DNA of 63,570 bases from a virus (IMGVR_UViG_3300025423_000018:1-63570); one strand, 5' to 3'; counted from the first letter of the stretch, positions 9,394 to 30,007 are shown. Translations and numbers: made by a program. The notes: generated by a model from the sequence alone, not told the origin.

Positions 9394-9421
9394 AATATAC
9401 ACTATTCCTTGGGTGTGTCAA
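9394..9421 (-). promoter_or_regulatory. sigma70-like promoter for 9302 and downstream genes
   Basis: TTGACA-16-TATATT on minus strand. Confidence 0.6.
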
Positions 9422-10142
9422 GAAGTTTTTTCTTGTTTCTTGCAGCCATCATTTTTGATTTCCAAATTGGATCCGCCCACAGTGCTTTGGCTGCGGCTTT
9501 TTTAGCAGCTTTGACTTCCTCACGGTTAGCAATTTCTTTGTTGTTTGCAGTTTGTTTAGCCGCATACTCAGGGTCAGCCCACTGAGTTTTAGCTTGAGCG
9601 CTGGTTTTAGCTTTGGACTTGTCTGTATTACGAGCTTCCTTGATGCTTTTAGCCAGTGTACCCCCTTTTGTTTCCCACATCTTTTTAGAATTGATTGACT
9701 TAGATTCAAGTGCTTCTGGCGTATTCTGAGCTTTGGTTTGCCCTGCAACTACTTTGGCGCGATACTCTGGGTCTTGCCAATGTTCTTTGGTAAATCGTCC
9801 ATCAGCGGCTTTTTGTTCTTCCGATTTAATATATCCGCTTGGGCCTTCGCCACCATCAGTTAAATTAAATAATGTTCCTGTTTTTAAATCTCGACGTCCA
9901 TATAGTTTGATAAGTTCCATCTCTTTGGCAAAAGCTTCTTCTTCATTTTCCGTTTCAAATACACGCTCACAAACGGCAACAAAATTGCGCTGTTTTAAAT
10001 GCGAAATAAAGTCTTGAAACGGTTTATTGTGAGATCCTCTTGACCAATGCGATAAATCACGATCTCCTGTACCTTTACCTACGTACACAGGCTGGCCTAG
10101 TTTAAGAGGGCGCGGGTCACGATAAACATAAACATAAAACAT
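9402..10142 (-). CDS. Free-standing GIY-YIG homing endonuclease with basic helical DNA-binding repeats
   Basis: FYVYVYRDPR..PVYVGKG..R, E..LI..YGR, LFNLTDGGEG; repeated W.DPEY units. Confidence 0.85.
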   Translation of the reverse strand: MFYVYVYRDPRPLKLGQPVYVGKGTGDRDLSHWSRGSHNKPFQDFISHLKQRNFVAVCERVFETENEEEAFAKEMELIKLYGRRDLKTGTLFNLTDGGEGPSGYIKSEEQKAADGRFTKEHWQDPEYRAKVVAGQTKAQNTPEALESKSINSKKMWETKGGTLAKSIKEARNTDKSKAKTSAQAKTQWADPEYAAKQTANNKEIANREEVKAAKKAAAKALWADPIWKSKMMAARNKKKLLDTPKE

Positions 10143-14126: not shown

Positions 14127-15057
14127 TCCAGCACCCCTTTGTAGCTTTGTCGTATACAACTTTATTTTTGTAATCCACACCTGAAAATTCAACAAATTGT
14201 TCTAGTGTTCTATCCGTGCCTAATCCATATATGCCGCGCATATTTCCATGAATCAAATTATTAAATCTTTCTTTGGATTGCCGATCTAATTCCCACCAGC
14301 GAACGCTTCTTACTTTGTCTTCTTCTTCAGACCAATGCTTGGCTCTTGTGCCATCGTTGTTGTCATACAAATGATAGATAGGTAATCTAGGGATATGGAA
14401 AATATCCCACCCATGCGTATACGCGCGAATGGATACAGACTGTTCTTCACCTTGGAAATAAAACAAAGGATCATAGGGAATTTCATTGACAAAATTTCCA
14501 TCTGCAAACACGCAGCCAGCGGCTATGTGAAAGCCTTTTAATGGAGTGTCGGTATCAACAGGAAGCCCAGTAATATTAACAAAAGGACTATCATCGTTGA
14601 ACTTTTGATCTTCTTTTATGTAAGCACAAACTGCCCCATTTGTGACGGGTTCTTTTATAAACTTATCGTCAACTATCTTAAATGGGTGTGGGTAATCTGA
14701 GATAACAAACCTAGGATTTATAGCTGCGCATTCTTCTGCGGCTTCGATCATTCGCTCATCCCAACCGTAGTCAAAGATCATGTGAGAATCAATTTGGAAA
14801 AAATAATCTTCGTCTCTATACAAAGACATGCATAGAGCCCTAGCCCAACAACATCCTCTAGATTCTTCAGGGTTAATACCTAAATACCTCATGTTGTCAC
14901 CGCTAGGAACTCTTAGGCGGTTTGATTCTTTCGTTTGCTCCACAATACCAAACACAATATCTTGTGGATATTTGGCATTTAGTAAGGCATCCAAAACTGT
15001 CCTTGTGAGCATTTTGTCTGCATACGAAGCAATTGATAAGAATATTTTTTTAGCCAT
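14119..15057 (-). CDS. GT60-like polypeptide/hydroxyproline N-acetylglucosaminyltransferase (GT-A fold)
   Basis: IFLSIASYAD, SRG.CWAR, YFFQIDSH, AAGCVF, PYDP.FYFQGEE, RAYTHGWDIF, IYHLY motifs of the Gnt1/'GlcNAc' family. Confidence 0.85.
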   Translation of the reverse strand: MAKKIFLSIASYADKMLTRTVLDALLNAKYPQDIVFGIVEQTKESNRLRVPSGDNMRYLGINPEESRGCCWARALCMSLYRDEDYFFQIDSHMIFDYGWDERMIEAAEECAAINPRFVISDYPHPFKIVDDKFIKEPVTNGAVCAYIKEDQKFNDDSPFVNITGLPVDTDTPLKGFHIAAGCVFADGNFVNEIPYDPLFYFQGEEQSVSIRAYTHGWDIFHIPRLPIYHLYDNNDGTRAKHWSEEEDKVRSVRWWELDRQSKERFNNLIHGNMRGIYGLGTDRTLEQFVEFSGVDYKNKVVYDKATKGCWNG

Positions 15058-17596
15058 TTGCAGGTTCTTGTGGTTGGTTCATCTGAGCATCTGCTTGCTG
15101 CTGTTGAATGTCCATCTTCTCACGAGCTTGTTGAGCCTTTGTCGCCATATCTAAGATATGCTTTTCTTGCTCTTGCTTGAGTTTGGCTTGATGTTCTTTC
15201 TCGGCATGCACTAAGCTTTGTCTGTGCTGGTGCTCAGTGTGGTGCATCTGCTGGGTGGCTTGCGCTACGTCCATGATATGCTGCTGGTTAAGCTGCTCGG
15301 GTGTTTGAACTGCGTTTTGCGCTGGTTGCGCTTGTGCTGCCTGTACCCCAGCTTGCTGTTGTTTCAACTGTAGCTCCGCTTGCTTGAGTGCCAACTCGCC
15401 CTGAACTTTATGAGCTTGTGTCTGAGCTTGCGCTGCCTTGATCTGCAACTCTTGCTGCTGCATTTGAACCAAAGGATCTTGAGCTTGTTGCTGAGCTTGC
15501 TGTTGTGCTGCCATCGCTTGGTGCTGCTGTGTGAGCTGCACTGCGGCTTGGGCCACGAGCCTAGACAACTGAACCTCTTGATCCGGTGGCAACTTGGCAT
15601 CTGGTGCTGGCATCTGCACACCCAACTGCTTCTCAATCTGGCTCCTATACTGGAACGCCAAGTGGTCTGCGATGTGCGCTTGGATCGCTGCTTGCATCTG
15701 TTGCGCCATGGGGTTTTGCCCAATCTGCTGAGCAATCATGGGATCCTGCATGAACGTAGAGTGCACCGCAATGTGCGCATCGTGATCTTGGAAGATAAAG
15801 GCTTTTGTAGGCTTTCCTTTGAGGAAGCCCATGTTCTCACTGATTGGATCTTTGGGCATCTCGTCATCTTCAGTCGGCACCAACTTGTCGGCGTTCTTCA
15901 CACCCAACACCTCGATCATCTGACGGTGCAACATCGGTAGATCATAGATCTGTGGAGCGCTTTGCGACAACTGAATCACAGCTTGGTACTGCATGATCCG
16001 CTGAGCCATTGTGCTTGAGTTGGGATCCGATACTGGGATCACCTCCACCAAGTCGTAGTCAGACTGTTTGGCTTTACGATCTGCTTTGTCTGGGTCGTAT
16101 GCGTAGGATTTCGGAGCATGCTCTCTGATGATTTCTTTCAAGAGCTTGAACTCTTGTCTCATCGAATAGTGCACACGGGCCTGCACAGCAGACATGGTCT
16201 TTAGCTGCCTCTCCAATAGAGCTAGCGTAGTACCCACAGGTGCGTTGGCACCCATGTCAGACACGTTCATATCTGCGATTGAACCAAGTCTTCTACCTTC
16301 GTCTGTGATCTCTTTAAGTAGACCTGCCAGAACCTGACTGGGTTCTTTGTATGGTAAGGGCATGATGTTGTCACGCAGTGCGCCTGACGCAATGTCCACA
16401 TCTCTAAACTCTCCGGGGGCGATCGGTGTATCGTCTCCCTTAGTACGCAGCCCACGGGTCTTCAACCCTCCGGGCAAGTTAGAGAGCGTACCTGCATCAA
16501 CGAGCTGTCTGATGATCGATGTACCTGCACGTGCATAGCCACCAATCAAATGGATGTATCCTAAACCATAAGCGCCAAAACCTGGCACATAGTCGTACTG
16601 AACTAAGTGGTCTCTCTTGAGTTTGAGTGGGTCTTTCTCTTTCCAATTGCGGTAGATTGAGAGAACCTTGCGCGTGCCTTTTTCAATCGAGATGATATAA
16701 GGTCTGGCGATGCCATCCTCATCTTCAAACATCGGCAAGTCATAGTCAACTTGAATTTCACAGATCTGATAGCGCTCATCGTCTGTCAATGAGTAGCCTT
16801 GCTCTTCAGCTTTTTTCTTCTCAACATCAGTGTGGATCTGTGTGGGTTCACCTAACTCAATGTCACGATAGAACCCTGAAACCTGCAGCTTTCTAATGTC
16901 GTTCTTGGTCTTCCTCATGATGTGAGTCACACGCTCAGCCATGCGCGCACCACTGGATCCATAAGGAATAATCACATCTTCTGCGGGGATATAGATTGAA
17001 GTCTGTCTACCAATGTTGGGGTCATAGTAAACTTTCTTGAACGCTGATCCTGTCAAACCTAAGTTGAACAACATCCTCTCATGCTCTGGTCTGTACTCAG
17101 GCATGCCCTCGGTCAACTCATAGTTCATATCAGCGCCAACTCGCTCAGCGGCTTCTTCCTTGAGCTTATCTATCGCACCAATGATCTCAGTCTTAACAGG
17201 GCCAGCAGCAGGAAAAGTCTCAATGATCGTTTCACTTTGAAAACGTACAGCAGCTTCTGTGAGGAGTGGGGAGTAAACGCCACAAGCACCGTTCCATGGC
17301 TCGGTTCTTTCCTCATACTTCATCCCCAATACTTCTAAGCCCTTGACGAGCATCTCAACCCAATCTTTTCTTGAGTTGATATCTGCCTCCACAAGCTCCA
17401 TGAGGCCACTGGAAATTTTCCCAAGCTCACCGTCGTCTAAGTACTCGGCTAAGTTGTCATCAAATTCTGTAGGGCCTAAGTCCTCTTCGCCTTCTGGTTC
17501 CGCTTCCTCACCCGCAATTTCAATTTCGATCTCTCCAACGTCTGGGTCAAGACCCTGCATGATCCCTTGAGGCGCGGCGTATAAACTCTTTTCCAT
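15050..17596 (-). CDS. Portal protein (P22-like, long Gln-rich C-terminal extension)
   Basis: 848 aa directly after TerL; FDDNLAE, GSAFKKVYYD, RQLVDAGTLSNLPGG. Confidence 0.9.
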   Translation of the reverse strand: MEKSLYAAPQGIMQGLDPDVGEIEIEIAGEEAEPEGEEDLGPTEFDDNLAEYLDDGELGKISSGLMELVEADINSRKDWVEMLVKGLEVLGMKYEERTEPWNGACGVYSPLLTEAAVRFQSETIIETFPAAGPVKTEIIGAIDKLKEEAAERVGADMNYELTEGMPEYRPEHERMLFNLGLTGSAFKKVYYDPNIGRQTSIYIPAEDVIIPYGSSGARMAERVTHIMRKTKNDIRKLQVSGFYRDIELGEPTQIHTDVEKKKAEEQGYSLTDDERYQICEIQVDYDLPMFEDEDGIARPYIISIEKGTRKVLSIYRNWKEKDPLKLKRDHLVQYDYVPGFGAYGLGYIHLIGGYARAGTSIIRQLVDAGTLSNLPGGLKTRGLRTKGDDTPIAPGEFRDVDIASGALRDNIMPLPYKEPSQVLAGLLKEITDEGRRLGSIADMNVSDMGANAPVGTTLALLERQLKTMSAVQARVHYSMRQEFKLLKEIIREHAPKSYAYDPDKADRKAKQSDYDLVEVIPVSDPNSSTMAQRIMQYQAVIQLSQSAPQIYDLPMLHRQMIEVLGVKNADKLVPTEDDEMPKDPISENMGFLKGKPTKAFIFQDHDAHIAVHSTFMQDPMIAQQIGQNPMAQQMQAAIQAHIADHLAFQYRSQIEKQLGVQMPAPDAKLPPDQEVQLSRLVAQAAVQLTQQHQAMAAQQQAQQQAQDPLVQMQQQELQIKAAQAQTQAHKVQGELALKQAELQLKQQQAGVQAAQAQPAQNAVQTPEQLNQQHIMDVAQATQQMHHTEHQHRQSLVHAEKEHQAKLKQEQEKHILDMATKAQQAREKMDIQQQQADAQMNQPQEPANG

Positions 17597-17605
17597 GATT
17601 GATCC

Positions 17606-19126
17606 TTAATAATATGATGAACGTCGGCCTGATTTGAAGTAGACTCTTTCTTCCGGCTCGTCACTCGGCAGTCTCAAGAAACCACCTTGCCTAAAACGCA
17701 TGAGTGCAAGTGTTGTCGCGTCCACCAAGTCATCATGTTCTCCTGATGGGAATGCAGCGATCTCATCTACTAACTCTTCGGCCCAACGGGTCTCGGGTAC
17801 CCAAACTTTACCAGACGCAATGATGTCAGCTACCGAGTTTAATCGCGCAATCTTGTCTTGTCCACGACTAGGCGTGTAGTCTTGAACCGGTATTCCCATG
17901 GCTCTTAGCTCATATATTAAGGGTGCTCCAGTCGCTTTTTTCTCAATTAACACCCCATCTGGCTGCCATTCTTGGTATTCTTTGAACACATCGTGCTTCA
18001 AATCTATCCACTCAACACGCCTTCTATATGTGTTTAAAAGGATCAAATTGGGCAAATTATGGTCTTTATTGTTGTAAAAAACGCCCCAAAGTGTGCCCGC
18101 AGAGTAGTCAGCACGCTGAGTTTTCTCATATGCCGTGTCCCAAGTCTGCAAAATATAGTCACATTCAGGCGGTTCTTGCTCTGTCCATATCTTCCACCAG
18201 TCTCTTTTGATGATCGCAGACTCGTTTCCAACAGGATTTTGCTGGTATTGGGCTTGCCATTTTGCATTTGGCAACTCTTCTCTGAGCGCATTTAGCTCAT
18301 TTAATGACCAAAACTCTGGCCATAGGGGGTTTCCCGAGGGCAAAATCGCCGGAAATTCAATGACTTCCCACTCTTCACCACCCCTAGAAGCACTTGCTTT
18401 GATCACTTGCCCAGTCAAATCTCTCATTGACCAACGTGTCATCACGATCACAATTGATCCACCCGGCTGCAAACGCTGCCTTGGGCCAGACGTATACCAT
18501 TCATAAACCTTGTCATAGACTTCTGGGTTCGTCGCCGCCATCGCAGCTTCTTGTTCTGAGTGTGGGTCATCAATAATAAGTATGTCAGCACCCTTACCGG
18601 TCACAGCACCGCCTACACCAATCGCAAAATAATCTCCGCCTTTTGATGTGTTCCAGCGACCAGCCGCCTTGGAGTCTGCTTGTAAGTTCAGATCCGGAAA
18701 GATCTCTTTGTATACTTCGCTATCCACAAGGTTACGGACTTTACGCCCAAAGCCTACCGCCAATTCCGCAGTGTGTGAAGTCTGGATGACTTTTTTGTGT
18801 GGATATTTTCCAAGAAACCATGCAGGTAATAAATAACTAGCAAACTCGGACTTAGTATGACGAGGAGGCATATTAATAATAAGACGCTTACACTCGCCGC
18901 GAGCCACACGCTCAAACGCTTCAGCCATCCTAGCATGGTGTCTCCCTGATATAAATGTTGGCCACACCTTCTGTGTGAACTTTAAAAACTTGGCTCTAGC
19001 AAGTTCTTGCTCTTTGAGCATCTCCAAATGGATGAGCTGTTTCTCCAATACCCGCATCTCCGACTCTGACAGCCTTGGCAGAATCTTGGTTATGTCTTTA
19101 AGAGAGACGTCTTGGACTTCACTCAT
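17606..19126 (-). CDS. terL: Terminase large subunit
   Basis: RLIINMPPRHTKSE (Walker A variant), LIIDDPH (Walker B), QYQQNP, WDTA, HDDLVDA RNase H-like nuclease. Confidence 0.96.
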   Translation of the reverse strand: MSEVQDVSLKDITKILPRLSESEMRVLEKQLIHLEMLKEQELARAKFLKFTQKVWPTFISGRHHARMAEAFERVARGECKRLIINMPPRHTKSEFASYLLPAWFLGKYPHKKVIQTSHTAELAVGFGRKVRNLVDSEVYKEIFPDLNLQADSKAAGRWNTSKGGDYFAIGVGGAVTGKGADILIIDDPHSEQEAAMAATNPEVYDKVYEWYTSGPRQRLQPGGSIVIVMTRWSMRDLTGQVIKASASRGGEEWEVIEFPAILPSGNPLWPEFWSLNELNALREELPNAKWQAQYQQNPVGNESAIIKRDWWKIWTEQEPPECDYILQTWDTAYEKTQRADYSAGTLWGVFYNNKDHNLPNLILLNTYRRRVEWIDLKHDVFKEYQEWQPDGVLIEKKATGAPLIYELRAMGIPVQDYTPSRGQDKIARLNSVADIIASGKVWVPETRWAEELVDEIAAFPSGEHDDLVDATTLALMRFRQGGFLRLPSDEPEERVYFKSGRRSSYY

Positions 19127-19748: not shown

Positions 19749-19777
19749 AATATACCATAGATATATTTTTTTTGCAA
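19749..19777 (-). promoter_or_regulatory. Putative late-arm promoter
   Basis: TTGCAA-17-TATATT on minus strand. Confidence 0.55.
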
Positions 19778-20002
19778 GGGGGATCCTTTTTTGATACCGG
19801 GGGGTCACCTAATATAAAGGGGGTGGGGTCTTGGTTGTGGCGAAATTTTAAAAATGGGTATCGGGTGTGCAGAACACAGTGTAGAGATATCTAGGATTCC
19901 TTTCCTACATTTCGGGGGGTGGCACTCGGGTGGGTCTTTGCTTTGAACCCATAACATTGTTAGCCCTAGGTCAATACAGTTTAATTTTCGTGTGAACACA
20001 AT

Positions 20003-20031
20003 TTGATTTTGATTCTTTTTTGTGGTACAAT
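20003..20031 (+). promoter_or_regulatory. Early promoter 1
   Basis: TTGATT-17-TACAAT with TGTGG extension. Confidence 0.75.
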
Positions 20032-20096
20032 ATAGTCATGCAAACGAAGAAACGATTGCATACATTGTTCAACATTAACTAACGAAGGGTTTCATT

Positions 20097-20573
20097 ATGA
20101 CAACAACTATCACTACACACGAAGACGCAACGGTGTTAGACCTTATTAATAACGTCGCTGATGCAGTTAAACGCAAGTACGGCGCAACCAAGGCGCTCGC
20201 AGTTAAGTTGTGCGACACTTTACCCGCAGAGTGGTACAACGTCGAGCATTCGGATCAATCCGAAGAAGCTAAGCCCACGCTCGCAGTTGCACAGTTATTC
20301 CGTGACACACTGCGCAACGCCGGACACAAAAACCCGTCGGTCGAGTGGACACGTGTTCGCAACGAAGGCAGAGTATTCGCCGAAGGCGCTCCCGAATCCG
20401 AAGGCGCCGGTGCAAAGAAGCGCACTCTTAAACTGCGTTTAATTGAGGAGTTGACCAAATTGCACAAAGCCGGTCTCGCTGAGAAGTTCGTTAACGAAGA
20501 CGAAGCCGAAGCATTGACTAGCATTGCTAGCGCATTGATAGCGCTCAATGTTGACCTCAATATGATTAAGTAA
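20097..20573 (+). CDS. First early protein, hypothetical
   Basis: 158 aa downstream of promoter; AAGGG RBS. Confidence 0.8.
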   Translation: MTTTITTHEDATVLDLINNVADAVKRKYGATKALAVKLCDTLPAEWYNVEHSDQSEEAKPTLAVAQLFRDTLRNAGHKNPSVEWTRVRNEGRVFAEGAPESEGAGAKKRTLKLRLIEELTKLHKAGLAEKFVNEDEAEALTSIASALIALNVDLNMIK

Positions 20574-20625
20574 ACGTGAGAAGCCCTAACAATGTTAGGG
20601 CACTCTTCAACCCAAGGGGAAAATT

Positions 20626-20724
20626 ATGGATTATCAAGTATGTCTAGGTTTGTTATTTATTGTGACTATCGTTGCATGGATAAGCGCAGAAGTCACATAC
20701 TATCGGAGCACTAAAAATGATTGA
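20626..20724 (+). CDS. Small membrane peptide (32 aa)
   Basis: AAGGGG RBS; MDYQVCLGLLFIVTIVAWISAEVTYYRSTKND; below ORF-track cutoff. Confidence 0.5.
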   Translation: MDYQVCLGLLFIVTIVAWISAEVTYYRSTKND

Positions 20725-20788
20725 ATTATTTTGCGCAGTGGTTATTGGTATCGTCGCATCAGCAATAATTATATTAACCTCACCCTAA
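20717..20788 (+). CDS. Small membrane peptide (23 aa)
   Basis: GGAG upstream; MIELFCAVVIGIVASAIIILTSP; stop lies within a palindrome. Confidence 0.4.
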   Translation: MIELFCAVVIGIVASAIIILTSP

Positions 20789-20808
20789 CATTGTTAGGCT
20801 TCCCTAGG

Positions 20809-20840
20809 TGCTACACTGAACTCAGTGTAGCATTTTTTTT
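20809..20840 (+). terminator. Rho-independent terminator
   Basis: TGCTACACTG-AACT-CAGTGTAGCA followed by T8. Confidence 0.8.
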
Positions 20841-21300
20841 GCGCTTTTGTCAAGCGCATTTATGCCAGTTCCCATAAGAATGTGCATTGTTACGCCTAAT
20901 GTTACGAAAATTGTGTCTTTGTTATACAACACATCGCTGGAAACCCGCATGAATCCTAGATTGTTACATGTTACGTTTTTTTTGATAATTGAATGAAACT
21001 TTGGGAGCACGAACATGAGGAAGCCCTCGGCAAGAGCATTCTGTGCTACATTTGATTTTCCAAGATCATATAAAAATGAGTATAACAATATAACTTACAT
21101 AACATTTAATTTTTTTTAGTTTAGAATCAAGTACTTACAAGCGTTATGTTTTTTTTCTGCCTATTTTTTAAGCATAACATTGCGAAACACTGTACCACAA
21201 ATAGCGCAACGACACTTCCGATGTAATTCTAGAGCTTGCAGTAATACCCAAGTATTCACTTTTTCAATTCAGTCCCACCCAAGACCAACGAGAGACCAAA
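20841..21300. other. AT-rich non-coding region, candidate replication origin
   Basis: Five TGTTA(C/T) repeats 20888-20975 facing inverted ATAAC(A) repeats 21081-21180; T tracts; IHF consensus at 21125-21137. Confidence 0.45.
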
Positions 21301-21303
21301 GAG

Positions 21304-21332
21304 TTGACATAGGTATAACATTGTGGTACAAT
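21304..21332 (+). promoter_or_regulatory. Early promoter 2
   Basis: TTGACA-17-TACAAT with TGTGG; partial palindrome TAACATTGT in spacer. Confidence 0.85.
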
Positions 21333-21410
21333 ATAGGCTGAAGACAAAAATCTTCTACTCAACAACACTCTCAACCCCTAACAATGTTAGGCAACAACGA
21401 AAGGTTACTT

Positions 21411-21632
21411 ATGGACTGGAAAGAATGTCTTGCGTGCGGTGACGATATCCGCATCGAGCGTTGGCAACTCGGCTATCGCTTCTGTTTATTCTGTGGTGAA
21501 GATCAAGCACGTGCTGAGCGTGCATCGTGGACTATCATTCAAGAGTATACCAAGGGCAACTACATGTTAGTTACACCTGCCAACGTACACACAACACTCA
21601 AGCAGACTAACCCAAAGGAGAATAGAGCGTGA
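21411..21632 (+). CDS. Small Zn-finger protein (DksA/TraR-like CxxC-x-CxxC spacing)
   Basis: CLACGDDI.IERW.LGY.FCLFC; AAGG RBS before ATG 21411. Confidence 0.65.
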   Translation: MDWKECLACGDDIRIERWQLGYRFCLFCGEDQARAERASWTIIQEYTKGNYMLVTPANVHTTLKQTNPKENRA

Positions 21633-21964
21633 GTAAAGATATCCCCAACTATAAAGCACGTGACTACGTGCAACGCAAAGAGCGTTTTGATGGTGCTAAT
21701 GTATACGCAAGATGGCACAGGCGCAGTGATTCACTGCAAAGCAAGCAGACCATATACGTGGTTTACTCGTATGGGAATCACTTCCCCATGTTTGTTTACG
21801 ATGCCGACGCTGACGTATGGGTAGAGAATTCCGATAAGTTCTCGGCAACAACATCAAAACAACGAACACAACTGCATCCATTGTGTGACACATTAAAGCG
21901 TCCGTTAGAAGACGTAAAGTTAGTTGCGGCTTATGGTATCTGTGGACTATTAAATAAGGAGTAA
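21629..21964 (+). CDS. Early hypothetical protein
   Basis: 111 aa; YVVYSYG.HFPM, SATTSKQ. Confidence 0.75.
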   Translation: MSKDIPNYKARDYVQRKERFDGANVYARWHRRSDSLQSKQTIYVVYSYGNHFPMFVYDADADVWVENSDKFSATTSKQRTQLHPLCDTLKRPLEDVKLVAAYGICGLLNKE

Positions 21965-21967
21965 AAA

Positions 21968-22129
21968 ATGACTGAAGGCGACTACTTAAAAGCACTCGAA
22001 CTCATCAAAGATGCTGAGCGCAACATCAGGGAAGGAGATTATGACCTTGCTCATATTGCAGTAATCGAAGCCCTAACATTGCTTGACGAGCGTGAGCGAG
22101 TCATGGGTGAAGAAGATGAGCGAGTTTGA
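21968..22129 (+). CDS. Early hypothetical protein (53 aa)
   Basis: AAGGAG RBS; MTEGDYLKALEL...; below ORF-track cutoff. Confidence 0.6.
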   Translation: MTEGDYLKALELIKDAERNIREGDYDLAHIAVIEALTLLDERERVMGEEDERV

Positions 22130-22313
22130 TGATCGGCCTGAATGGATTGTGTACAGAATAATTGGACATCCGTTCAGTTTATTAGCCACGACCAAGCCAG
22201 TGTGGGACTCGATGATGGAGTATTCACGAAATGAGTACAGGTTCGAAATTGTTGCCGAGAATTTAACGTTCGAAACTGCAACGAAGATGATAAGACTAAC
22301 GAAGGGAGAATAA
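22116..22313 (+). CDS. Early hypothetical protein
   Basis: MSEFDDRPEW..., overlapping upstream stop. Confidence 0.6.
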   Translation: MSEFDDRPEWIVYRIIGHPFSLLATTKPVWDSMMEYSRNEYRFEIVAENLTFETATKMIRLTKGE

Positions 22314-22409
22314 CATGAGCTATAACCGACGGAGCGAATTGATATCACGCGTGATCTTTCTGATTGCGGTTATTGTGATATGTGCAGATTTATTTATCTG
22401 GAGGAGAGG

Positions 22410-22571
22410 ATGAAGCTAACCAAGTACTACGTGACCGGATACAACCCACGGTTCGGCAACTGGAGTGCACAAGTGTACGAATGTGCAACGATGGAGAATG
22501 CGAAACTTAGATTTTCCCTTGAGTTTCCATACCTCAAAACAATTAAGGCTTACGCCCTACGGACAGACTAA
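22410..22571 (+). CDS. Early hypothetical protein
   Basis: GGAGGAG RBS before MKLTKYY. Confidence 0.6.
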   Translation: MKLTKYYVTGYNPRFGNWSAQVYECATMENAKLRFSLEFPYLKTIKAYALRTD

Positions 22572-22575
22572 ATGC

Positions 22576-22604
22576 TTGACTCAGGTATTATTCTGTGGTA
22601 CAAT
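22576..22604 (+). promoter_or_regulatory. Early promoter 3
   Basis: TTGACT-17-TACAAT with TGTGG; -10 overlaps partial palindrome ACAATGTTA. Confidence 0.8.
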
Positions 22605-22694
22605 GTTATTAAAAAAGCTCAATGAGCGAAGTGAATTGTGTTTGTCAGCAACCCCCTAACAATGTTAGGGATATTAACCTAGAAGGAACTAAAA

Positions 22695-23759
22695 ATGTCA
22701 GAAGTAAATTTCGGTAAGTCAATTACATTGAAGCAAGCATCAAAGCTCATTCAATCCAACCCTGAGACTCGTTTTCTACTTGAAGGTGAGCCGGGCATTG
22801 GGAAGTCATCCCTATTAGAGAGTATAGCCAACGGTATGGGCTACGACTATGCCTACATCGATGTGCCGAACATGGACTTGGGCGATATCGCCATGCCTGT
22901 GATCGACCACGACACCAAGACTACCAAGTATTACCCTAATGCTAGGTTCAAGATTCACGAAGGCAAACCACTGGTGATCATGCTCGACGAGTTCACCAAA
23001 GGTGCAGACCCTGTGAAGAACATGCTTCACCCCATGCTAGAGAAGGCAAACCCAAGACTCGGTGACATTCCAATACCCAAGGAGACCATTGTGTTTTTGA
23101 CTGGTAATCTTTCGACCGACGGTGTGGGTGACTCCCTGAAAGCACATAGCCGTAATCGTTTGGTTCCCGTGCGTATCCGCAAACCCGATGCCGATGAGTG
23201 GATCGAGTGGGCGATGGGCAAAGGTATCGAGCCCGAGGTGATTGCATGGGTGAATCGGTTCCCTCATGTGTTGGCTAGCTATACCGATGGTGGATCCGGA
23301 GATAACCCATACATCTATTCACCTAAGAGTAATCAGAAGGCGTTTGTTTCCCCTCGTTCGCTAGAGACTGCATCTAACATTGTTAGGACTCGTAAGGACA
23401 ACGATCCTGATACGGTGATATCCGCATTGACTGGTGCGATCGGTGAAGCAGGTGCTCGGGATATGCAAGCGTACATCGAGTTCTCAGATCAACTGCCGAC
23501 ATGGGAAGCGACGATTGCTAACCCTAAGACTACGCAGATACCAACATCAGCCGGTGCCTGTGCGATTGTGGTATTCGGTGCGATTGCACGGATGACCAAG
23601 GAGAGCATCACTCCATTCATGGAGTATCTACAACGGTTCGATGCCGAGTGGCAAGCCGTGTTTGCGATCAACATTGCGAAGACACCGAGCAAGCAAGCGA
23701 TAGCGTTCAGTTGCAAGGCGTTCAGTGATTGGGTTGCGAAGAATCAAGACTTACTTTAA
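22695..23759 (+). CDS. AAA+ ATPase (MoxR/dynein-related type)
   Basis: GEPGIGKS Walker A, IMLDEF Walker B, TGN sensor 1, SPRS. Confidence 0.9.
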   Translation: MSEVNFGKSITLKQASKLIQSNPETRFLLEGEPGIGKSSLLESIANGMGYDYAYIDVPNMDLGDIAMPVIDHDTKTTKYYPNARFKIHEGKPLVIMLDEFTKGADPVKNMLHPMLEKANPRLGDIPIPKETIVFLTGNLSTDGVGDSLKAHSRNRLVPVRIRKPDADEWIEWAMGKGIEPEVIAWVNRFPHVLASYTDGGSGDNPYIYSPKSNQKAFVSPRSLETASNIVRTRKDNDPDTVISALTGAIGEAGARDMQAYIEFSDQLPTWEATIANPKTTQIPTSAGACAIVVFGAIARMTKESITPFMEYLQRFDAEWQAVFAINIAKTPSKQAIAFSCKAFSDWVAKNQDLL

Positions 23760-23771
23760 TAGGAGCTAACA

Positions 23772-24962
23772 ATGTTAGAGGAACGAAAAATACAGAAGGC
23801 CAAGATCAGCTTGATGCGTAACCCCAAGTTCGCATTGCTCAGTGGTATCTTGATGGTGGGACGTACGTTTGTTGACGATAACACACCGACTGCTAGGACT
23901 AACGGACGTGACGAGTGGTATGGGCGTAAGTTCATCAACGAGTTGACCGAGAAGGAGCTTGCGTTTGTGATTGCACACGAAGCGTCGCACAAGATGTATC
24001 GTCACTTGACTACGTATAAGAAGCTACATGAAGAGAATGCAATGCTGGCGAATGGTGCGTGTGACTACGTGATCAACCTGATGCTACAAGATACAGACCC
24101 CGAGCAAACCGTGATCACCATGCCACGGTGGAAGAGTGGCGAGAAGAAAGGTGAGCCGATGGGCTTGATCGATGAGAAGTATCGAGGTATGAATTCCAAG
24201 CAAGTGTTCGACCTACTGAAGCAGAACGATGATGGATCGGGCGGAGATGGGTTCGATGAGCATGACTGGGAAGAAGCAACGAAAGGCATGACAGAGCAAG
24301 AGAAACGTGAGTTGGCTAGGGATATTGACCAAGCCATAAGACAAGGACTCATGGCACAACACAAAGTTGCCGGTAAGGGTAGAAGTGGTGGTGACCGAGA
24401 GCTTGAAGATCTACTCAATCCCAAGGTGGATTGGCGTGAAGTCTTGCGTGAGTTCGTGAAAGCCACATGCAATGCCAAGGATACTTCATCATGGCGCAGG
24501 GTTAACCGACGTTATCTATCGACTGGTATGTACATGCCGAGCATGATCGGTGAGCGAGTTGGTCATATCGTGATAGCCGTAGATACATCGGGGTCAGTAG
24601 GACAACAAGAATTATCTGAGTTCCTTGGTGAAGTCAAAGGTGTAGCAGAGGAGGTGCATCCTGAGAAAGTTGACTTGATCTACTGGGGTTCAGATGTTGC
24701 AGGTCACGAAGAGTACGAAGGCAATGCGGTGGCTAACATTGTTAGTTCTACAAAGCCCAAGGGCGGTGGAGGTACATCGCCGAGTTGCGTGTCCGAGTAT
24801 CTCGAAGAGAAGAAGATCGTGCCCGAGTGCATCATTGTTCTTACCGACGGATACGTAGGCAGTGACTGGGGTGGCAACTGGACTGCACCAATTCTGTGGA
24901 CTATCGTAGGAGGTAATGATGTCGTTTCACCGAATGGCAAAACAATTCACATCAACAATTAA
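23772..24962 (+). CDS. Metallopeptidase-vWA domain protein (DUF2201-like)
   Basis: TA.TNG, HEASH (HExxH), NxAxD..IN; DTSGS MIDAS, GGGT, LTDGY. Confidence 0.88.
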   Translation: MLEERKIQKAKISLMRNPKFALLSGILMVGRTFVDDNTPTARTNGRDEWYGRKFINELTEKELAFVIAHEASHKMYRHLTTYKKLHEENAMLANGACDYVINLMLQDTDPEQTVITMPRWKSGEKKGEPMGLIDEKYRGMNSKQVFDLLKQNDDGSGGDGFDEHDWEEATKGMTEQEKRELARDIDQAIRQGLMAQHKVAGKGRSGGDRELEDLLNPKVDWREVLREFVKATCNAKDTSSWRRVNRRYLSTGMYMPSMIGERVGHIVIAVDTSGSVGQQELSEFLGEVKGVAEEVHPEKVDLIYWGSDVAGHEEYEGNAVANIVSSTKPKGGGGTSPSCVSEYLEEKKIVPECIIVLTDGYVGSDWGGNWTAPILWTIVGGNDVVSPNGKTIHINN

Positions 24963-24993
24963 TATTAACCGAGCACTAATGAGGAGAGATGAA

Positions 24994-25245
24994 ATGATGA
25001 TTGTAACTATTGGCTATCAAGACTATGCGTTACCAACCAAGGACGCCATAACATTGTTAGAGTTACTGAGCAAGGCAGAGAGGTACGAGGACAGGTACGT
25101 ATCAAAAGATTCCAAGGAGAACACAACAGGCGAAGCGTATCACACGTTTCATGTGTATGAGAATGACACGGTGTTCAATGCCAAGGTTATCCCTAACGAG
25201 AAATACCGAATGGCTAAGCTAGCGGGTAAACCCGAGCGTTCATAA
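24994..25245 (+). CDS. Hypothetical protein
   Basis: GAGGAG RBS before MMIVTIGY. Confidence 0.65.
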   Translation: MMIVTIGYQDYALPTKDAITLLELLSKAERYEDRYVSKDSKENTTGEAYHTFHVYENDTVFNAKVIPNEKYRMAKLAGKPERS

Positions 25246-25263
25246 TTTAACAGGAGAAATCAA

Positions 25264-26115
25264 ATGAGTATTAGTTCATCAGCAGTATTAGTAGAGTTGA
25301 ATATCAGCGTATGGCCAGCCAGTAAAGTTGACCGTGAAACAACTGATCTTGTGAATAGCAACGCATCAGCAGTGCGAGATGCCAGCCAGACCAAGAAGAA
25401 TCTTTTTGCAGGTACGAGCATGCGTAAGGATATCGACAAGTTCGCCGCCCGAGTGCGTCTGTATCACAACCAACACACATTGCCTTGGGCAGACAAGGGT
25501 CAACGACTTCTACCTACTAAGCTATTCATGGAATACAAGCAGACCATGGATGCACACGAGCACACATTCAATATGATGTGCAATAACTTCTATGCCATGT
25601 ATCCTCAGTTGGTACAGGATGCGAGCGTAAGTCTAGGTTCACTCTACAAAGCAAGCGACTATCCCGATATCGAGGAAGTCAAGGGTAAGTTCGGGTTCAG
25701 AAGATCCGTCGATCCAATCCCTGAGAGTGGCGACTTTAGATTAGATGTATCAGCAGAGGACTTAGCGGATTTGAAAAACCACTATGAACAACAATATAGC
25801 AATAGGATAGCCGAAGCGATGCGTGCACCGTGGGAACGTCTGCATACTACGTTAACTGCAATGTCTGAGAAGCTCACCGAACGAGCTAGTGATCAGAAGG
25901 TTCGGTATCACGACAGTCTACTAACGAATGCGCAAGACTTGTGCTCGCTGTTGACCAAGCTCAATGTGACCAATGATCCGAAGTTAGAGGAAGCTAGGCA
26001 AGACCTTGAGCGTGCGTTGGTAGGTGCAGACATGGACGGACTGAAAGAAGATTCGTTCGAGCGTCATGCCTTGAAGAACAAAGTGGATGCCATCATTGGC
26101 AAGTTCAACTGGTAA
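25264..26115 (+). CDS. Helical hypothetical protein downstream of the AAA/vWA pair
   Basis: 283 aa; AGGAG RBS; HTLPW, RLLP, DYP. Confidence 0.8.
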   Translation: MSISSSAVLVELNISVWPASKVDRETTDLVNSNASAVRDASQTKKNLFAGTSMRKDIDKFAARVRLYHNQHTLPWADKGQRLLPTKLFMEYKQTMDAHEHTFNMMCNNFYAMYPQLVQDASVSLGSLYKASDYPDIEEVKGKFGFRRSVDPIPESGDFRLDVSAEDLADLKNHYEQQYSNRIAEAMRAPWERLHTTLTAMSEKLTERASDQKVRYHDSLLTNAQDLCSLLTKLNVTNDPKLEEARQDLERALVGADMDGLKEDSFERHALKNKVDAIIGKFNW

Positions 26116-26285
26116 GGGGTATGTATGAAAGCATGGACTAAGTATCCGAACACATTTGATTCGGATGTTCTTGAGAAGGTTCCACATATTGTGGAAGACC
26201 GAGATGGTAATCAAGTTGAGGTGATGGCGCTTGATCCAATCAACGCTATCGTATTGGTAACTGAAATGATAATGGAGAATTTTAA

Positions 26286-27101
26286 ATGATTGATGCAATG
26301 ATGCTATCCAGTGTTTACATGGAGAAGAATAAGAGTAAGACCGACGTAAAGATGGACTCCAATCTATCTGAGATTGTGGTTGCGTTAGCTACTACTAATC
26401 CGACGTGGTCATTCGAGTGCATACCTCATCAGTTCAGAGATCGTATTGGTAAGGTTTACGTATATGCAGAGGGGCAACAGATTGGTTACCTTAACCGTGA
26501 GTATTCTAACCGAGCCGGTGGTAATGCAACTAGAGTTAGTAAGCCCAATGAGTATAGACGCAACGGAGAATTCACAGTCACGTCCGACAACAAGAAGGCC
26601 ATTCGTGAAGCGAAGAAACGTTTCACGGTTAAGTCTATTAAAGAAATAATAGGCGAGAAGTATAGAGAAGCTAGAGATATAGTGCAACAACAACGATACC
26701 GCAAGGGTAGCAGGGCAGGGGATTGTGTAGGTTCGTTGAGAGATGTTATGCATAAGTACACATTTGAAGAATATCGGGAGCAGTTCGTTTCGTTCTTGAC
26801 CAAGCAACATAACAGTTCACAACTATTAAGTAAGCTCAAGGAGTTTGATGAGATAACTGCGGAGTTCAACGCAATCGACGCAATCGAGGAAAAGGTGAAG
26901 ACAGACGACCATGTACTTATCCATATCAATGGGAGTAAATATATTGTTAAGACTATTGACAATGTACAATCTTATGATGATAATACACTCCCCGAAGAAT
27001 ACAGAGGTAAGCTCGGTATGCTGAAGTTGGTGGAGGTGAACCAGTGTGTATCGGATGTGGGATGCAGAACACATGACGATACGTTCTTAATTGTTACCTA
27101 A
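26286..27101 (+). CDS. Hypothetical protein
   Basis: 271 aa; GGAG RBS; C-terminal LPE...KLGMLKLV. Confidence 0.8.
   Translation: MIDAMMLSSVYMEKNKSKTDVKMDSNLSEIVVALATTNPTWSFECIPHQFRDRIGKVYVYAEGQQIGYLNREYSNRAGGNATRVSKPNEYRRNGEFTVTSDNKKAIREAKKRFTVKSIKEIIGEKYREARDIVQQQRYRKGSRAGDCVGSLRDVMHKYTFEEYREQFVSFLTKQHNSSQLLSKLKEFDEITAEFNAIDAIEEKVKTDDHVLIHINGSKYIVKTIDNVQSYDDNTLPEEYRGKLGMLKLVEVNQCVSDVGCRTHDDTFLIVT
26956..26984 (+). promoter_or_regulatory. Putative internal promoter (second class)
   Basis: TTGACA-17-GATAAT; shares ACTATTGACAAWGT with 29664. Confidence 0.45.
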
Positions 27102-27126
27102 CAATGTTAGGGGTTGAAAGGTATAT

Positions 27127-27312
27127 ATGAATACAGAGATGTTAAAACGTGCAAGGAAACTGTGGGCGGTGGAGTACATGTCCCACTACGAGAACAGGAC
27201 GAACATGCGCAAGTGGGTGAAGGCGGTGCGTGTGGTCAGAGACAATGGGAACTGGCTTTTGTTGAAAAAGGTGGGGAGGGCAAATGAAAATGCAAGCAAC
27301 ACTATCGTTTAA
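27127..27312 (+). CDS. Hypothetical protein
   Basis: 61 aa; AAGG RBS. Confidence 0.65.
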   Translation: MNTEMLKRARKLWAVEYMSHYENRTNMRKWVKAVRVVRDNGNWLLLKKVGRANENASNTIV

Positions 27313-27487
27313 TTACCCCGAGGATGAAGGTAGGTTGGAAGACGCAATGCGTGCAACTGAGTACAAGGAAGCGTTACAACGTGTGGAGAAACGTATACAA
27401 GAACACTTTGACCATGACGACAGTCCTGAGTTCACCATAGCAAGTATCAACACAATAGTAAAGCTAGCATTGAAGGGGCACTTATGA
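27284..27487 (+). CDS. Hypothetical protein
   Basis: 67 aa; GGAGG RBS. Confidence 0.65.
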   Translation: MKMQATLSFNYPEDEGRLEDAMRATEYKEALQRVEKRIQEHFDHDDSPEFTIASINTIVKLALKGHL

Positions 27488-27575
27488 GAACGTTTTGGCT
27501 ATTCTTAATTTGGCTTGAGTTGTGCATCGTCAACTGGAATCTCAAGGACATCGTTCACGTACTGGAGAAAACGAC

Positions 27576-27845
27576 ATGACTGAACAAGAAATGATTGGGA
27601 TTACCAATCAAGCTAGCAAAGAATGGCTTAAAGAATTTCCAACGCCGCAAGAAACGGCGCACCCAGTGCCTAAACGCTTTTTGGAAATCTTTGCCAAACT
27701 AATAGCAGAAAAAGAACGTGAGGCGTGTGCTGAAATTTGTGATGGTTTTTACTTATCATGGATAGACATACAAGGTAGATATGAATTCATGGGTGAGGGA
27801 GCAAGCGAATGTGCTGGTGCAATCCGAGCAAGGGGACAAGAATGA
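27576..27845 (+). CDS. Hypothetical protein (paralog of 32693..32908)
   Basis: FAKLIAEKEREACAEIC...AIRARGQE; GGAG RBS. Confidence 0.7.
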   Translation: MTEQEMIGITNQASKEWLKEFPTPQETAHPVPKRFLEIFAKLIAEKEREACAEICDGFYLSWIDIQGRYEFMGEGASECAGAIRARGQE

Positions 27846-28084
27846 CTAACGAAGAAATCATAGCCAAAATTATGGCTAACCAATGGTGGCCGTTCGACCG
27901 AGTGGATCCCAAGATACTTGAGGAGATACAACGTAGGGATAAGCAGAAAACCGTCGCTGAGATGGAGGAAGCACCGCTATGACTGAACTTGGATTTTTTG
28001 TAGTTATGTTTGCGTTTGTATGCGCAATGATGAACGCAGGTTTGGTGATGTTTTTAATATGGATGATTTACAGGAGCATGAACA

Positions 28085-28276
28085 ATGATTGAATTTACAC
28101 TTACGGAGATAGTCCTATTGGCATGGGCGGGCATTGCCACAGGCATGGCACTGCATTATTGGGAGGAAGATAGGGGTCACAGAAGATTTGTGACTACCTT
28201 GATTGAGAACAAGGGGTTGCGAGAAGAGTTTTATAGCAAGATTGATAAACACATTGAGGAGCACAAAGAATGTTAA
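28085..28276 (+). CDS. Small membrane protein
   Basis: N-terminal TM; AGGAG RBS. Confidence 0.6.
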   Translation: MIEFTLTEIVLLAWAGIATGMALHYWEEDRGHRRFVTTLIENKGLREEFYSKIDKHIEEHKEC

Positions 28277-28533
28277 ATAGTATAAAACAACTGATAAGTG
28301 CAAGTAAATCACAAGAAGTTTTACATGCAAGAAACCCCAACGAATTACGCACAGATACCAACGTGAAGTTTGGTGTAATCCAAGCGTTGAATGGCAAGAT
28401 CATTGAGATCAGTACGTACAAACCCAACCACAATGGGCCTGACTGGACACACCAATGCTATATCGTAAAAGACGAAGAGACGCTAGCAGAAGCTATGGCG
28501 ACTGTGATTACGATGAAAGGGCTAGAGCAATGA
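28270..28533 (+). CDS. Hypothetical protein
   Basis: 87 aa, translationally coupled. Confidence 0.65.
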   Translation: MLNSIKQLISASKSQEVLHARNPNELRTDTNVKFGVIQALNGKIIEISTYKPNHNGPDWTHQCYIVKDEETLAEAMATVITMKGLEQ

Positions 28534-28775
28534 AGAAATGGGATGGATTCGACGAAGCGATTCTTGGGCCAGCAAGCGTTTGGAATGGCAATACTAGAGT
28601 AGAGGTATTGGTTTACGATGGCGATGCTATGCGAGATATTTTGATGAAGCGTGACTCCATGAGCATGGAAGATGCACGTGAGTTTATTGAATACAATCTT
28701 GAGGGCGCCTACATCGGTGAGGATACGCCTGTTATCGTATGGACAAATGATTTATATTGGGAGGAGGAAGAATGA
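28530..28775 (+). CDS. Hypothetical acidic protein
   Basis: DGFDEAILG, VYD, EDAREFIEYN.EGAYIGE.TP. Confidence 0.7.
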   Translation: MKKWDGFDEAILGPASVWNGNTRVEVLVYDGDAMRDILMKRDSMSMEDAREFIEYNLEGAYIGEDTPVIVWTNDLYWEEEE

Positions 28776-28987
28776 TATTCGACCGTATCGACGAGTTGAA
28801 GACTGGAATAGAAAAGAAAAAGCATGGGCGGGGTCTTGGTAAGAAACCTGCGCTTGTGCACTTGAGCTTGCGCTTGCCGAAAGATGTGATGGATTTTTTT
28901 GATTCACGCTATCCGTATGCAAAGCAAGCCAAGATACGAGAAATTCTTACTGATTATGTAAACAAGGAACTAACCAATGAAAAGTAG
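28772..28987 (+). CDS. Ribbon-helix-helix (BrnA-antitoxin-like) DNA-binding protein
   Basis: GRG.GKKP, LSLRLPKDVMDFF, QAKIREIL. Confidence 0.6.
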   Translation: MIFDRIDELKTGIEKKKHGRGLGKKPALVHLSLRLPKDVMDFFDSRYPYAKQAKIREILTDYVNKELTNEK

Positions 28988-29480
28988 AGCACAAATCGTA
29001 CGTGAGTACATAAACGCAAACCCCGAAGCTACAACTGCGGAAGTAGCCAAGAAGTGCAAAGTCACGACTCAGTACGTGTATCAAGTCAAGTCTGACGAGA
29101 AGAAAAGACTAGCGAAAAAGCGAGTGAAGATCACTGCAACCCAAGCTGAAGTGGCTAAGAGAATGGGTGTACCTCTTTCGGTATACGCAAATAATTTATT
29201 ACCCAACGGAAAATTAAAAACAAGAATGCAAGCGTCATTCGATAGAGAACCGCCTACCATTACGATGGAAGAGCCAAAGGCCGACCCAGTCAATCACCCA
29301 CCGCATTACAAGACTGGCGGTATTGAGACTATCGACTTTATTGAAGCGAAAGAGTTAGGCTATCACTTGGGCAACGTTATCAAGTACGTTACTAGAGCCA
29401 AGCACAAGGGCAATGAACTTGAAGATCTTAAGAAAGCACAATGGTATCTCGAACGTGCTATTATGAAGCTACATATTTGA
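28977..29480 (+). CDS. HTH + DUF3310 (T7 gp1.7/SaV-like) protein
   Basis: N-terminal NPEATTAEVAKKC HTH; DPVNHPPHY..GGIETIDFI, GNVIKYV.RA.HKG, EDLKKAQWYL. Confidence 0.85.
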   Translation: MKSRAQIVREYINANPEATTAEVAKKCKVTTQYVYQVKSDEKKRLAKKRVKITATQAEVAKRMGVPLSVYANNLLPNGKLKTRMQASFDREPPTITMEEPKADPVNHPPHYKTGGIETIDFIEAKELGYHLGNVIKYVTRAKHKGNELEDLKKAQWYLERAIMKLHI

Positions 29481-29620
29481 AGCGGGTTGCTTAAATCACG
29501 TGTAAGGAAACCTTGCAGATGCGAACTTATACGTGCTACGTACGTCCCCGCTTTAAAGATTTTTGACGTATGTAGACCTTTCCAACCATGAGGGGGGCGT
29601 GGAATCTGCATAACCCCCCA
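29480..29620 (+). ncRNA. Candidate doubly pseudoknotted structured RNA
   Basis: Five non-overlapping helices of 6-11 bp (see findings); wobble pairs are G-U on the + strand. Confidence 0.6.
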
Positions 29621-29663
29621 ACCACCCCTAACAATGTTAGGGTAAATATTTTATATAATACTA

Positions 29664-29691
29664 TTGACAAAGTCTAATGTACCACTATACT
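29664..29691 (+). promoter_or_regulatory. Promoter of replication module (probably leaderless transcript)
   Basis: TTGACA-16-TATACT; ATG 7 nt downstream with no RBS. Confidence 0.7.
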
Positions 29692-29698
29692 ACGGTAC

Positions 29699-30007
29699 AT
29701 GGCACAAACCCCCGAAGCAAAAGTTAAAAAGCAAATCAAGGCCACCCTTGAAAAGCATGGTGTGTATTACGCTATGCCTATCGGCACAGGCTTTGGTAAT
29801 TCAGGCGTACCCGATTTTCTTTGTTGCGTGAACGGCAAGTTCTTGGCGATTGAAGCCAAGGCAGGGAACAATCAACCGACTGCGTTACAAATAAAACACC
29901 TCAACGATATTACTAGAGCAGGGGGACAGTCACTTGTTGCCAACGAGAACAGTTTGTTTGTGTTAGAAACTGTAATTGAAAACTTAAAAGGAACTAATCA
30001 TGAGTGA
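29699..30007 (+). CDS. VRR-NUC / Holliday junction resolvase-like nuclease
   Basis: TPE..V, GVPD, FLAIEAK, PT.LQ. Confidence 0.88.
   Translation: MAQTPEAKVKKQIKATLEKHGVYYAMPIGTGFGNSGVPDFLCCVNGKFLAIEAKAGNNQPTALQIKHLNDITRAGGQSLVANENSLFVLETVIENLKGTNHE

Follow-up and report, generated by a model that had tools for sequence, protein, structure and literature searches.

The uncultured freshwater phage record IMGVR_UViG_3300025423_000018, all 63,570 bases of which were analysed and are called the window here, carries an array of short palindromes, TAACAWTGTTA, along its early arm. Across this phage and its relatives, the spacing between the two half-sites of the palindrome covaries with the protein encoded by the first early gene (gene 20097), which is the only gene to follow the motif class among the early-arm genes of the window that were compared with the related loci. 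The array is genuine: its sites lie in the early arm only, follow the promoters there, and are under selection at the level of the nucleic acid. Their reader is most likely the phage's own first early protein, and the target that it reads is probably duplex DNA. We see about an even chance that the palindromes are operators at which a symmetric dimer of this protein would roadblock transcription of the early arm.

An early-arm array in several spacing classes

An exact search of the window finds 11 copies of TAACAWTGTTA, with cores starting at 19952, 20587, 20786, 21379, 22657, 23375, 23767, 24734, 25049, 27099 and 29629, and zero outside 19952-29639, a span of 9.7 of the 63.6 kb. The expected count is 0.08 (mean of 100 dinucleotide-preserving shuffles, with a maximum of 1). 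A sequence-only reading of this DNA had picked out the same eleven perfect cores and had seen none elsewhere by eye, and the exact counts bear out both statements. Nine of the copies have the form CTAACAWTGTTAG, and the remaining two (19951 and 25048) begin with A. Some copies extend into longer palindromes, as had also been proposed; those at 20584-20600, 22652-22670 and 29625-29642 are flanked by C and G. Allowing up to three mismatches gives 30 matches versus 18.4 expected. The near-copies at 20518 (a symmetric two-mismatch variant within gene 20097), 22073 and 22689 all lie within the array region, and the second of these, with two mismatches, is the partial copy previously placed near 22074. 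The copies and the features that they accompany are as follows.

19749-19777, minus strand: P_L, leftward promoter-like site of the packaging and structural arm, with a TG-extended -10
19951-19963: copy 1 (ATAACATTGTTAG), flanked by the divergent promoters P_L and P1 and roughly 40 bp ahead of the P1 -35
20003-20031, plus strand: P1, early promoter of gene 20097, sigma-70-like with an extended -10, kept in relatives
20097-20573, plus strand: gene 20097, first early gene and candidate binder (158 amino acids), all-helical, predicted symmetric homodimer
20584-20600: copy 2, a 17-bp palindrome right after the gene 20097 stop, 26 nt before the next start codon
20783-20798: copy 3, gives the TAA stop of a small open reading frame (ORF) and ends 7 nt before intrinsic terminator T1
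20806-20845, plus strand: T1, strong intrinsic terminator that ends the first small operon, after copy 3
21304-21332, plus strand: P2, early promoter with 11 of 12 consensus matches and a TG extension; its spacer holds a partial motif copy
21375-21391: copy 4, in the 5' leader downstream of P2, 20 nt before ATG 21411
22576-22604, plus strand: P3, near-consensus sigma-70-type early promoter with a TG extension; its -10 region overlaps a partial motif copy
22652-22670: copy 5, in the 5' leader downstream of P3, 24 nt before the ATPase start at 22695
22695-23759, rightward arm: MoxR-type ATPase
23374-23386: copy 6, within the MoxR-like ATPase gene, peptide SNIVR
23766-23778: copy 7, whose central ATG is the start codon (23772) of the vWA/DUF2201 gene
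23772-24962, rightward arm: vWA/DUF2201 protein
24733-24745: copy 8, within the vWA gene, peptide ANIVS
25048-25060: copy 9, begins with A, within ORF 24994-25245, peptide ITLLE
27097-27111: copy 10, gives 26286-27101 its TAA stop and ends 15 nt short of the following start codon
29625-29642: copy 11, which stands where the early arm ends, 21 bp before the replication-gene promoter -35, and is followed by a T-rich run
29664-29691, plus strand: replication-module promoter, with no palindrome copy beyond it

The coding contexts that had been assigned to the three copies inside genes are correct, as are the placement of one copy across the vWA start codon and the supply of stop codons by two others. 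Partial copies overlap early promoters P2 and P3, again as first read.

Related loci were gathered from IMG/VR through their ATPase. A total of 293 were found, the best 80 of these were read (81-100% protein identity), and 21 more were added later; single-protein searches contributed few further loci of the rare classes. Palindrome counting that assumed no motif in advance finds one heavily repeated palindrome in the same region of nearly all 80 loci. Counting the window with them, 39 loci use TAACA-N1-TGTTA (class n1) and 34 use TAACA-N2-TGTTA (class n2), one has N3 spacing (n3), two carry an arm variant, TGACA-N2-TGTCA, and five have too few sites for a class call. Between 5 and 22 copies are present in each of the 75 related loci with an array, and the spacing is nearly uniform within each genome, with a few genomes mixed. 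One relative, L061, is the only one without any array. Mixed spacings occur in L065 (16 n2, 3 n3 and 2 n1 sites), L069, L071, L072 and L100 (6 n2 and 6 n3), and these genomes may be intermediates of a specificity change. In n1 and n2 phages alike, the spacer before the TG-extended -10 of many early promoters (21316-21326 and 22598-22608 in the window, and others in relatives) resembles an arm of the palindrome together with its centre (TAAC-W-W-TGTGG).

In five near-complete relatives of 61-66 kb, the A/T-centre sites among the matches listed fall within about 10-13 kb; two C/G-centre sites lie outside, and 32 matches are unlisted. Taken with the exact count in the window, this distribution agrees with confinement to the early arm and not with an even spread through the genome. 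No match to the 10-kb array region appears among cultured phages in a megablast search of 50,697 phage records. The closest cultured phage by large terminase is DSL-LC04 (57% identity, with a different gene order), and the 34 kb of it that were read hold no repeated palindrome.

Conservation at synonymous positions, which had been proposed as a check on the array, places selection on the nucleic acid itself. For the invariant ATPase peptide SNIV(R), 37 of 38 n1 loci use the motif spelling, TCTAACATTGTTAG, versus 4 of 34 n2 loci, and the n2 loci between them show 20 different synonymous spellings, so that codon choice here is fixed according to class. This dependence is also seen between L053 (n1) and L054 (n2). 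Their ATPase genes are 94.3% identical, with 61 differences in 1074 bases, and 8 synonymous differences fall inside the 17 bases of the site.

The sites also keep a regular position with respect to transcription. Counts of sites refer to unique sequence contexts and not to independent events. In n1, n2 and n3 loci, 94 of the 108 unique early promoters are followed by a site whose centre lies 30-119 nt past the -10 (mode 50-59), and 65 of these 94 sites lie at 40-69 nt. By crude ORF calls, ORF interiors make up 80% of the bases in the range, yet 491 of 681 unique sites lie outside them. At the far end of the array, many relatives of all classes have a last site, then an intrinsic terminator, and then the replication-module promoter, whereas the window has the site and a T-rich tail alone.

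Covariation with the first early protein

A homologue of 20097 is found in all 23 n1 loci that cover the place and in none of the 19 others (16 n2 and one each of n3, TGACA and no class). A gene of 161-209 amino acids occupies the corresponding position in these others, and in all of them except L061 it is homologous to 20097 but very divergent from it (hhalign probability 95.4%, E = 1.9e-8). L061, which has no array, also has no member of the 20097 family. Assignment of loci through subfamily representatives agrees with class for 26 n1 and 18 n2 loci. Two deep clades make up the first-gene tree, one with 29 n1, one n3 and one n2 member and the other with 26 n2, two TGACA and one n1 member. 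The tree (60 rows) needs 4 class changes, versus at least 8 on the ATPase tree (76 rows). For 13 other genes, each with at least four sequences per class, the ratio of between-class to within-class identity is 0.76-0.99.

Four candidate binders had been named within the phage, and 20097 is the sole one that tracks the motif class. Neither the ribbon-helix-helix protein at 28772 (identity ratio 0.96) nor the helix-turn-helix DUF3310 protein at 28977 (0.97) does so. The XRE protein at 37825 does not follow class in five genomes either, its identity being 59% in the n3 phage, 46% in an n2 phage and 52-63% in n1 phages.

The AlphaFold model of the 20097 protein has five helices (mean predicted local distance difference test, pLDDT, 84.2; predicted template modelling score, pTM, 0.51). 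The homodimer prediction scores 0.73 versus 0.22 for the best control and pairs the chains symmetrically through the first helix and a C-terminal hairpin; the runs share at least 83% of contacts, with a partner pLDDT of at least 80. This mark is reached by 20 of 30 proteins solved as pairs and by 1 of 23 solved as single chains, a calibration that is rough here because a custom alignment was used. The prediction thus supports formation of a dimer. In the full-length family alignment, W46 is invariant and K59, W84, R86 and V87 are nearly so. There are at least 830 homologues in environmental phages, all unnamed. A protein atlas places 20097 with unnamed viral clusters (0.93-0.94); named clusters score 0.79-0.82, which is under the trust level of the tool. 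A tblastn search of the protein against the 50,697 cultured-phage records gives no match.

Several observations weigh against assigning the sites to this protein. Two phages, each on its own branch of the tree, break the correspondence: in L077 the protein is n2-like but the sites are spaced by three bases, and in L117 an n1-like protein occurs together with n2 sites. Phylogenetically independent contrasts between protein and spacing number only 4 on supported branches or 6 on all branches, for a sign test p of 0.125 at best; all of them point in the same direction or show no difference, and none is opposite. Some co-inheritance is also expected, since gene and sites are linked in one module. 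The protein has no Pfam or PHROGs match and no recognised DNA-binding domain, and its isoelectric point is 5.8 (5.3-8.8 in the family). A Foldseek comparison of the model with the PDB has a best E of 3.0, and a wide VIA search has a best Z of 6.2, to short helical pieces, a value common for helical models; neither is a reliable fold match. The case for repression, finally, is drawn from layout alone.

Proposed duplex operators and competing explanations

If the palindromes are operators, the early arm could be controlled as follows. The 20097 protein would be made first, from P1, in its own short operon. Its dimer would contact two invariant half-sites of five to six bases, (C)TAAC(A), which flank an uncontacted A/T centre, and it would occupy the site about 50 bases downstream of each early promoter, as well as sites at gene junctions, inside early genes, and at the two positions that bound the early arm. 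Each bound dimer would then be a roadblock to the host polymerase and shut off the early arm, while the site-free replication and structural or late genes would stay on. A stoperator-like roadblock was one of the functions suggested from the sequence alone, and it appears to fit the layout best because a site lies 30-119 nt downstream of so many early promoters. From these patterns we infer three separate steps, namely that the protein binds the sites, that it does so on duplex DNA, and that binding represses.

The same palindrome could instead be read as RNA. A hairpin in early transcripts would have the stem (C)CUAAC/GUUAG(G) and a loop of 3-5 bases, and the first early protein might bind it in promoter-proximal antitermination of the lambda N/nut kind or in control of mRNA processing, stability or translation. 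We consider this unlikely. The centre base of 313 unique n1 sites is A in 184, T in 126, G in 2 and C in 1. A and T are equivalent at the dyad centre of a duplex and are very different bases in an RNA loop, so a centre that takes A and T but not G and C favours duplex DNA. Across sites the arms are invariant and the centre varies, and L077 combines CTAAC arms with the centres AAT, ATT, TTT, AAA and GGT. Half-sites that are contacted, with a spacer between them that is not, leave such a pattern, whereas RNA binders that read loops leave the reverse, with variable stems and constant loops. The flanks of the n1 sites, which are C/G-rich on either side, show no compensatory covariation. Pairing there is close to the marginal expectation (245 versus 239.0 in shuffles at position 1, and 131 versus 131.3 at position 2), and one-sided deviations (27 C..T and 22 A..G) outnumber compensated ones (7 A..T).

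Folding energies of the 11 copies as RNA range from 0.0 to -12.6 kcal/mol. The long G/C-extended stems of the intergenic copies (-5 to -12.6 kcal/mol) count in favour of a hairpin; against it, two of the 11 have hardly any fold and another two get no further than about -2.5 kcal/mol. The P1 and P2 leaders (20036-20062 and 21340-21355) and the leaders of many relatives open with a separate small stem-loop whose sequence varies by promoter, unlike the invariant palindrome further down; in three early leaders, the fold energies of these 5' hairpins are not distinct from shuffles (z = -1.0 to -1.7).

Copy 1 also bears on the choice between DNA and RNA. A site of the phage's own class about 150-165 nt upstream of the first gene, some 40-50 bp before the P1 -35, is kept in all classes, and it is present in 21 of the 22 upstream regions shown, the exception being the motif-less L061. 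The leftward promoter, also kept in relatives, lies some 200 bp further left; the P_L-type pattern is marked in 12 of 31 relatives, and similar unmarked sequence is visible in others. From the predicted positions of P1 and P_L, this upstream site would lie outside both transcripts.

Other features of the layout favour an RNA element. A site in the leader follows 94 of the 108 early promoters, and the covarying protein is the first gene of its operon, as in lambdoid phages. Many sites lie 14-25 nt before start codons or come just ahead of intrinsic terminators, which are places typical of RNA elements; many also stand directly before ribosome-binding sites, and one covers a start codon. The n2 spacer is strand-biased outside ORFs toward AA on the sense strand (203 AA versus 46 TT, against a background of 1.56:1), and it runs the other way (4 TT, 4 AT and 1 AA) at the site that lies before P1 and faces the leftward arm. 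A perfectly symmetric reader of duplex DNA does not predict this bias. The arginine-rich N-terminus that might be expected of an RNA-binding antiterminator is absent from the 20097 protein and from 32 members of its family.

On balance, the palindromes are better explained as duplex sites for a dimeric binder. This was the central proposal of the sequence-only reading, and it is strengthened by the fixation of synonymous codons, by the A/T-only centre between independent half-sites, by the site between divergent promoters, and by the predicted homodimer.

A host DNA-binding protein might be the reader, with the first early gene acting on a host factor or tracking the host. That the phage candidate has no recognisable DNA-binding fold and that two phages break the protein-to-spacing rule would both suit this explanation, to which we give little weight. 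L053 and L054 fall in different classes despite nearly identical ATPase proteins, and spacings of one, two and three bases plus an arm change among close relatives would need as many host factors. The array-less relative, moreover, also has no gene of the 20097 family.

It is very unlikely that the sites act on incoming or replicating DNA, either as pause or handling signals during entry or as nucleation points of a protective coat on the first-entering segment. Such functions would be consistent with an array that occupies a single continuous stretch, a tenth to a fifth of the genome, beside packaging genes and conserved non-coding blocks, and with a covarying protein that is the first made. 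The record has no end repeats, however, and the repeats on three relatives may reflect circular assembly only. The tight tie of the sites to promoters, leaders and terminators points to transcription instead.

It is highly improbable that the palindromes are N4-type hairpin promoters, read by an RNA polymerase carried in the virion. The phage does share the gp24-like ATPase of N4 and its vWA partner, the ATPase relatives in cultured phages are mostly N4-like (22-27% identity), most copies lie a short distance upstream of genes, and the n1 form can make a stem of 5-7 bp with a three-base loop. But PHROGs and Pfam assign no polymerase family to the 2091-residue, 1190-residue or other large virion proteins, a PDB sequence search gives one weak match, and the known catalytic motifs are absent from these proteins, although very divergent polymerases could escape such a comparison. 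Strong, conserved sigma-70-type promoters already precede the early genes, and the loop length would differ by class. Least probable of all are parS-like centromeres for an extrachromosomal prophage, which the dispersed, centromere-sized palindromes would suit: scans of 72 ORFs with PHROGs and of 19 with Pfam turn up no ParA, ParB, integrase, partition or repressor-like lysogeny gene, and the sites follow promoters.

If the 20097 dimer does act at duplex operators, a broader generalisation may be offered tentatively, and we lean against rather than toward it. The 20097 family would be a new kind of sequence-specific dimeric DNA-binding protein and a timer of early transcription in lytic phages whose half-site spacing has been reset repeatedly. 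The resets would involve three, four or five bases between CTAAC arms, plus one change of arm, and each would have required ten to twenty sites to be rewritten, including those in conserved genes.

Genome setting and comparison with known systems

The record consists of two divergent arms. Packaging and head genes run leftward from about 19.8 kb, and tail, lysis and internal virion proteins come next when the record is read circularly.

17606-19126, leftward arm: terminase
15050-17596, leftward arm: portal

The rightward arm begins with small early genes, continues with the ATPase, the vWA/DUF2201 protein and more small genes, and leads into a replication module from 29699 that includes a DNA polymerase, an exonuclease, a helicase and a primase-helicase. 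Gene 20097 has its own promoter (P1) and terminator (T1).

Several features near the array deserve mention in their own right. Between the leftward promoter and copy 1 (19800-19950, and the same place in L007-L082) are conserved non-coding blocks with C/G runs and a CACACTGTG-like block; lying beside a small-terminase-like gene, they could be a packaging site, an origin or genome ends. From T1 to P2 there is an A/T-rich gap of about 450 bases (20850-21300) that has no convincing gene and several promoter-like matches on both strands. The 73-residue protein encoded by 21411-21632 has a CxxC-N14-CxxC arrangement and is present in all classes (51-77% identity to that of the window); it has no Pfam match at E 0.01 and presumably resembles the TraR/DksA-type zinc fingers that bind RNA polymerase. 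At the start of the replication module (29686-29701), the start codon of a Hjc/VRR-NUC-like gene (29699) comes 7 nt past the promoter -10 with no ribosome-binding site, and its message looks leaderless from the sequence. Most relatives give this gene a longer leader that includes a GGAG-type site, and in them an intrinsic terminator separates the last palindrome from the promoter. Further away, the minus strand encodes a virion-module protein of 2091 residues (41144-47419) that has no family match and resembles an 'internal virion protein' in a weak PDB sequence match only (E = 0.00068). The head and tail genes are interrupted by inserted HNH and homing-endonuclease-like genes (6208-6708 and 9402-10142, minus strand).

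The natural series of matched protein and site variants makes specificity directly testable, and the layout suggests a way in which a phage dependent on the host polymerase alone could shut down its early genes. Should the protein bind, it would represent a new DNA-binding fold with orthogonal protein-operator pairs that differ mainly in spacing, and it would aid annotation of the early regions of many uncultured freshwater phages. No description of the array of this phage group was found in the literature on stoperators and early palindromes, in searches of which the motif itself was not a subject.

Known systems resemble the array in different respects. The lambda N protein acts with nut (boxB) RNA hairpins, and its specificity pairs differ between related phages. 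As in that system, the covarying protein is the first behind an early promoter and a hairpin-capable element lies in the promoter-proximal leader. Here, however, there are eleven to twenty-two copies versus two, the stems are conserved and the loops variable, there is no arginine-rich peptide, and one conserved copy falls beyond the predicted transcripts. Dispersed repressor sites are also known from temperate-phage immunity systems, among them the P1 C1 operators and the conserved inverted repeats to which the phiC31 repressor binds. They share with the present array, as we interpret it, one phage regulator and many operators over early functions, but they belong to temperate phages and have known repressors. 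No sequence or fold relation of 20097 to these repressors was found; its language-model score to a phiC31-repressor-like cluster (0.81) is under the trust level of the tool.

Cluster A phages carry 20-30 copies of a short stoperator site across the genome, mostly outside promoters. These are bound by the helix-turn-helix immunity repressor (L5-type) of the temperate phage itself, which blocks elongation, and repressor and site motif covary among related phages (PMC6550527). Like stoperators, the palindromes described here are many copies of one short site in transcription units (11 in the window and 5-22 in relatives), and their variants covary with a phage protein, in this case a candidate binder. 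Stoperators are asymmetric, oriented with transcription and genome-wide, whereas the present sites are palindromes restricted to the early arm, where a strand bias appears only in the two-base spacer of the n2 class. There are also no lysogeny genes among the ORFs scanned here, the candidate is a first early gene with no known fold, and half-site spacing varies between the classes.

The 17-bp dyad repeats of Cluster O phages (Corndog and relatives) have invariant 7-bp inverted arms around a variable, mostly A/T centre of three bases. They number in the tens, are genome-wide and mostly away from predicted promoters, and are in many cases intergenic, with about one third inside genes (PMC4351075). 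The host phages are not obviously temperate, and the authors predicted a dimeric DNA binder, with no named candidate or function (PMC4351075). Palindrome arrays of lytic phages were thus known before with neither a binder nor a function, and a candidate protein is offered here. Both arrays combine invariant arms, a short variable A/T centre and many copies in an apparently non-temperate setting. The present one differs in its sequence and shorter arms, in ending at the boundary between early and middle genes, in following nearly every early promoter, and in having a covarying candidate protein. The Cluster O repeats are an analogue of it and not a homologue.

Cluster A stoperators and Cluster O dyad repeats are the closest precedents. 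Three features are new in the present phages: the sites fall into spacing classes, the array keeps to the early arm, where almost all early promoters are followed by a site, and the candidate binder, which covaries with the sites, comes from a large family of unknowns.

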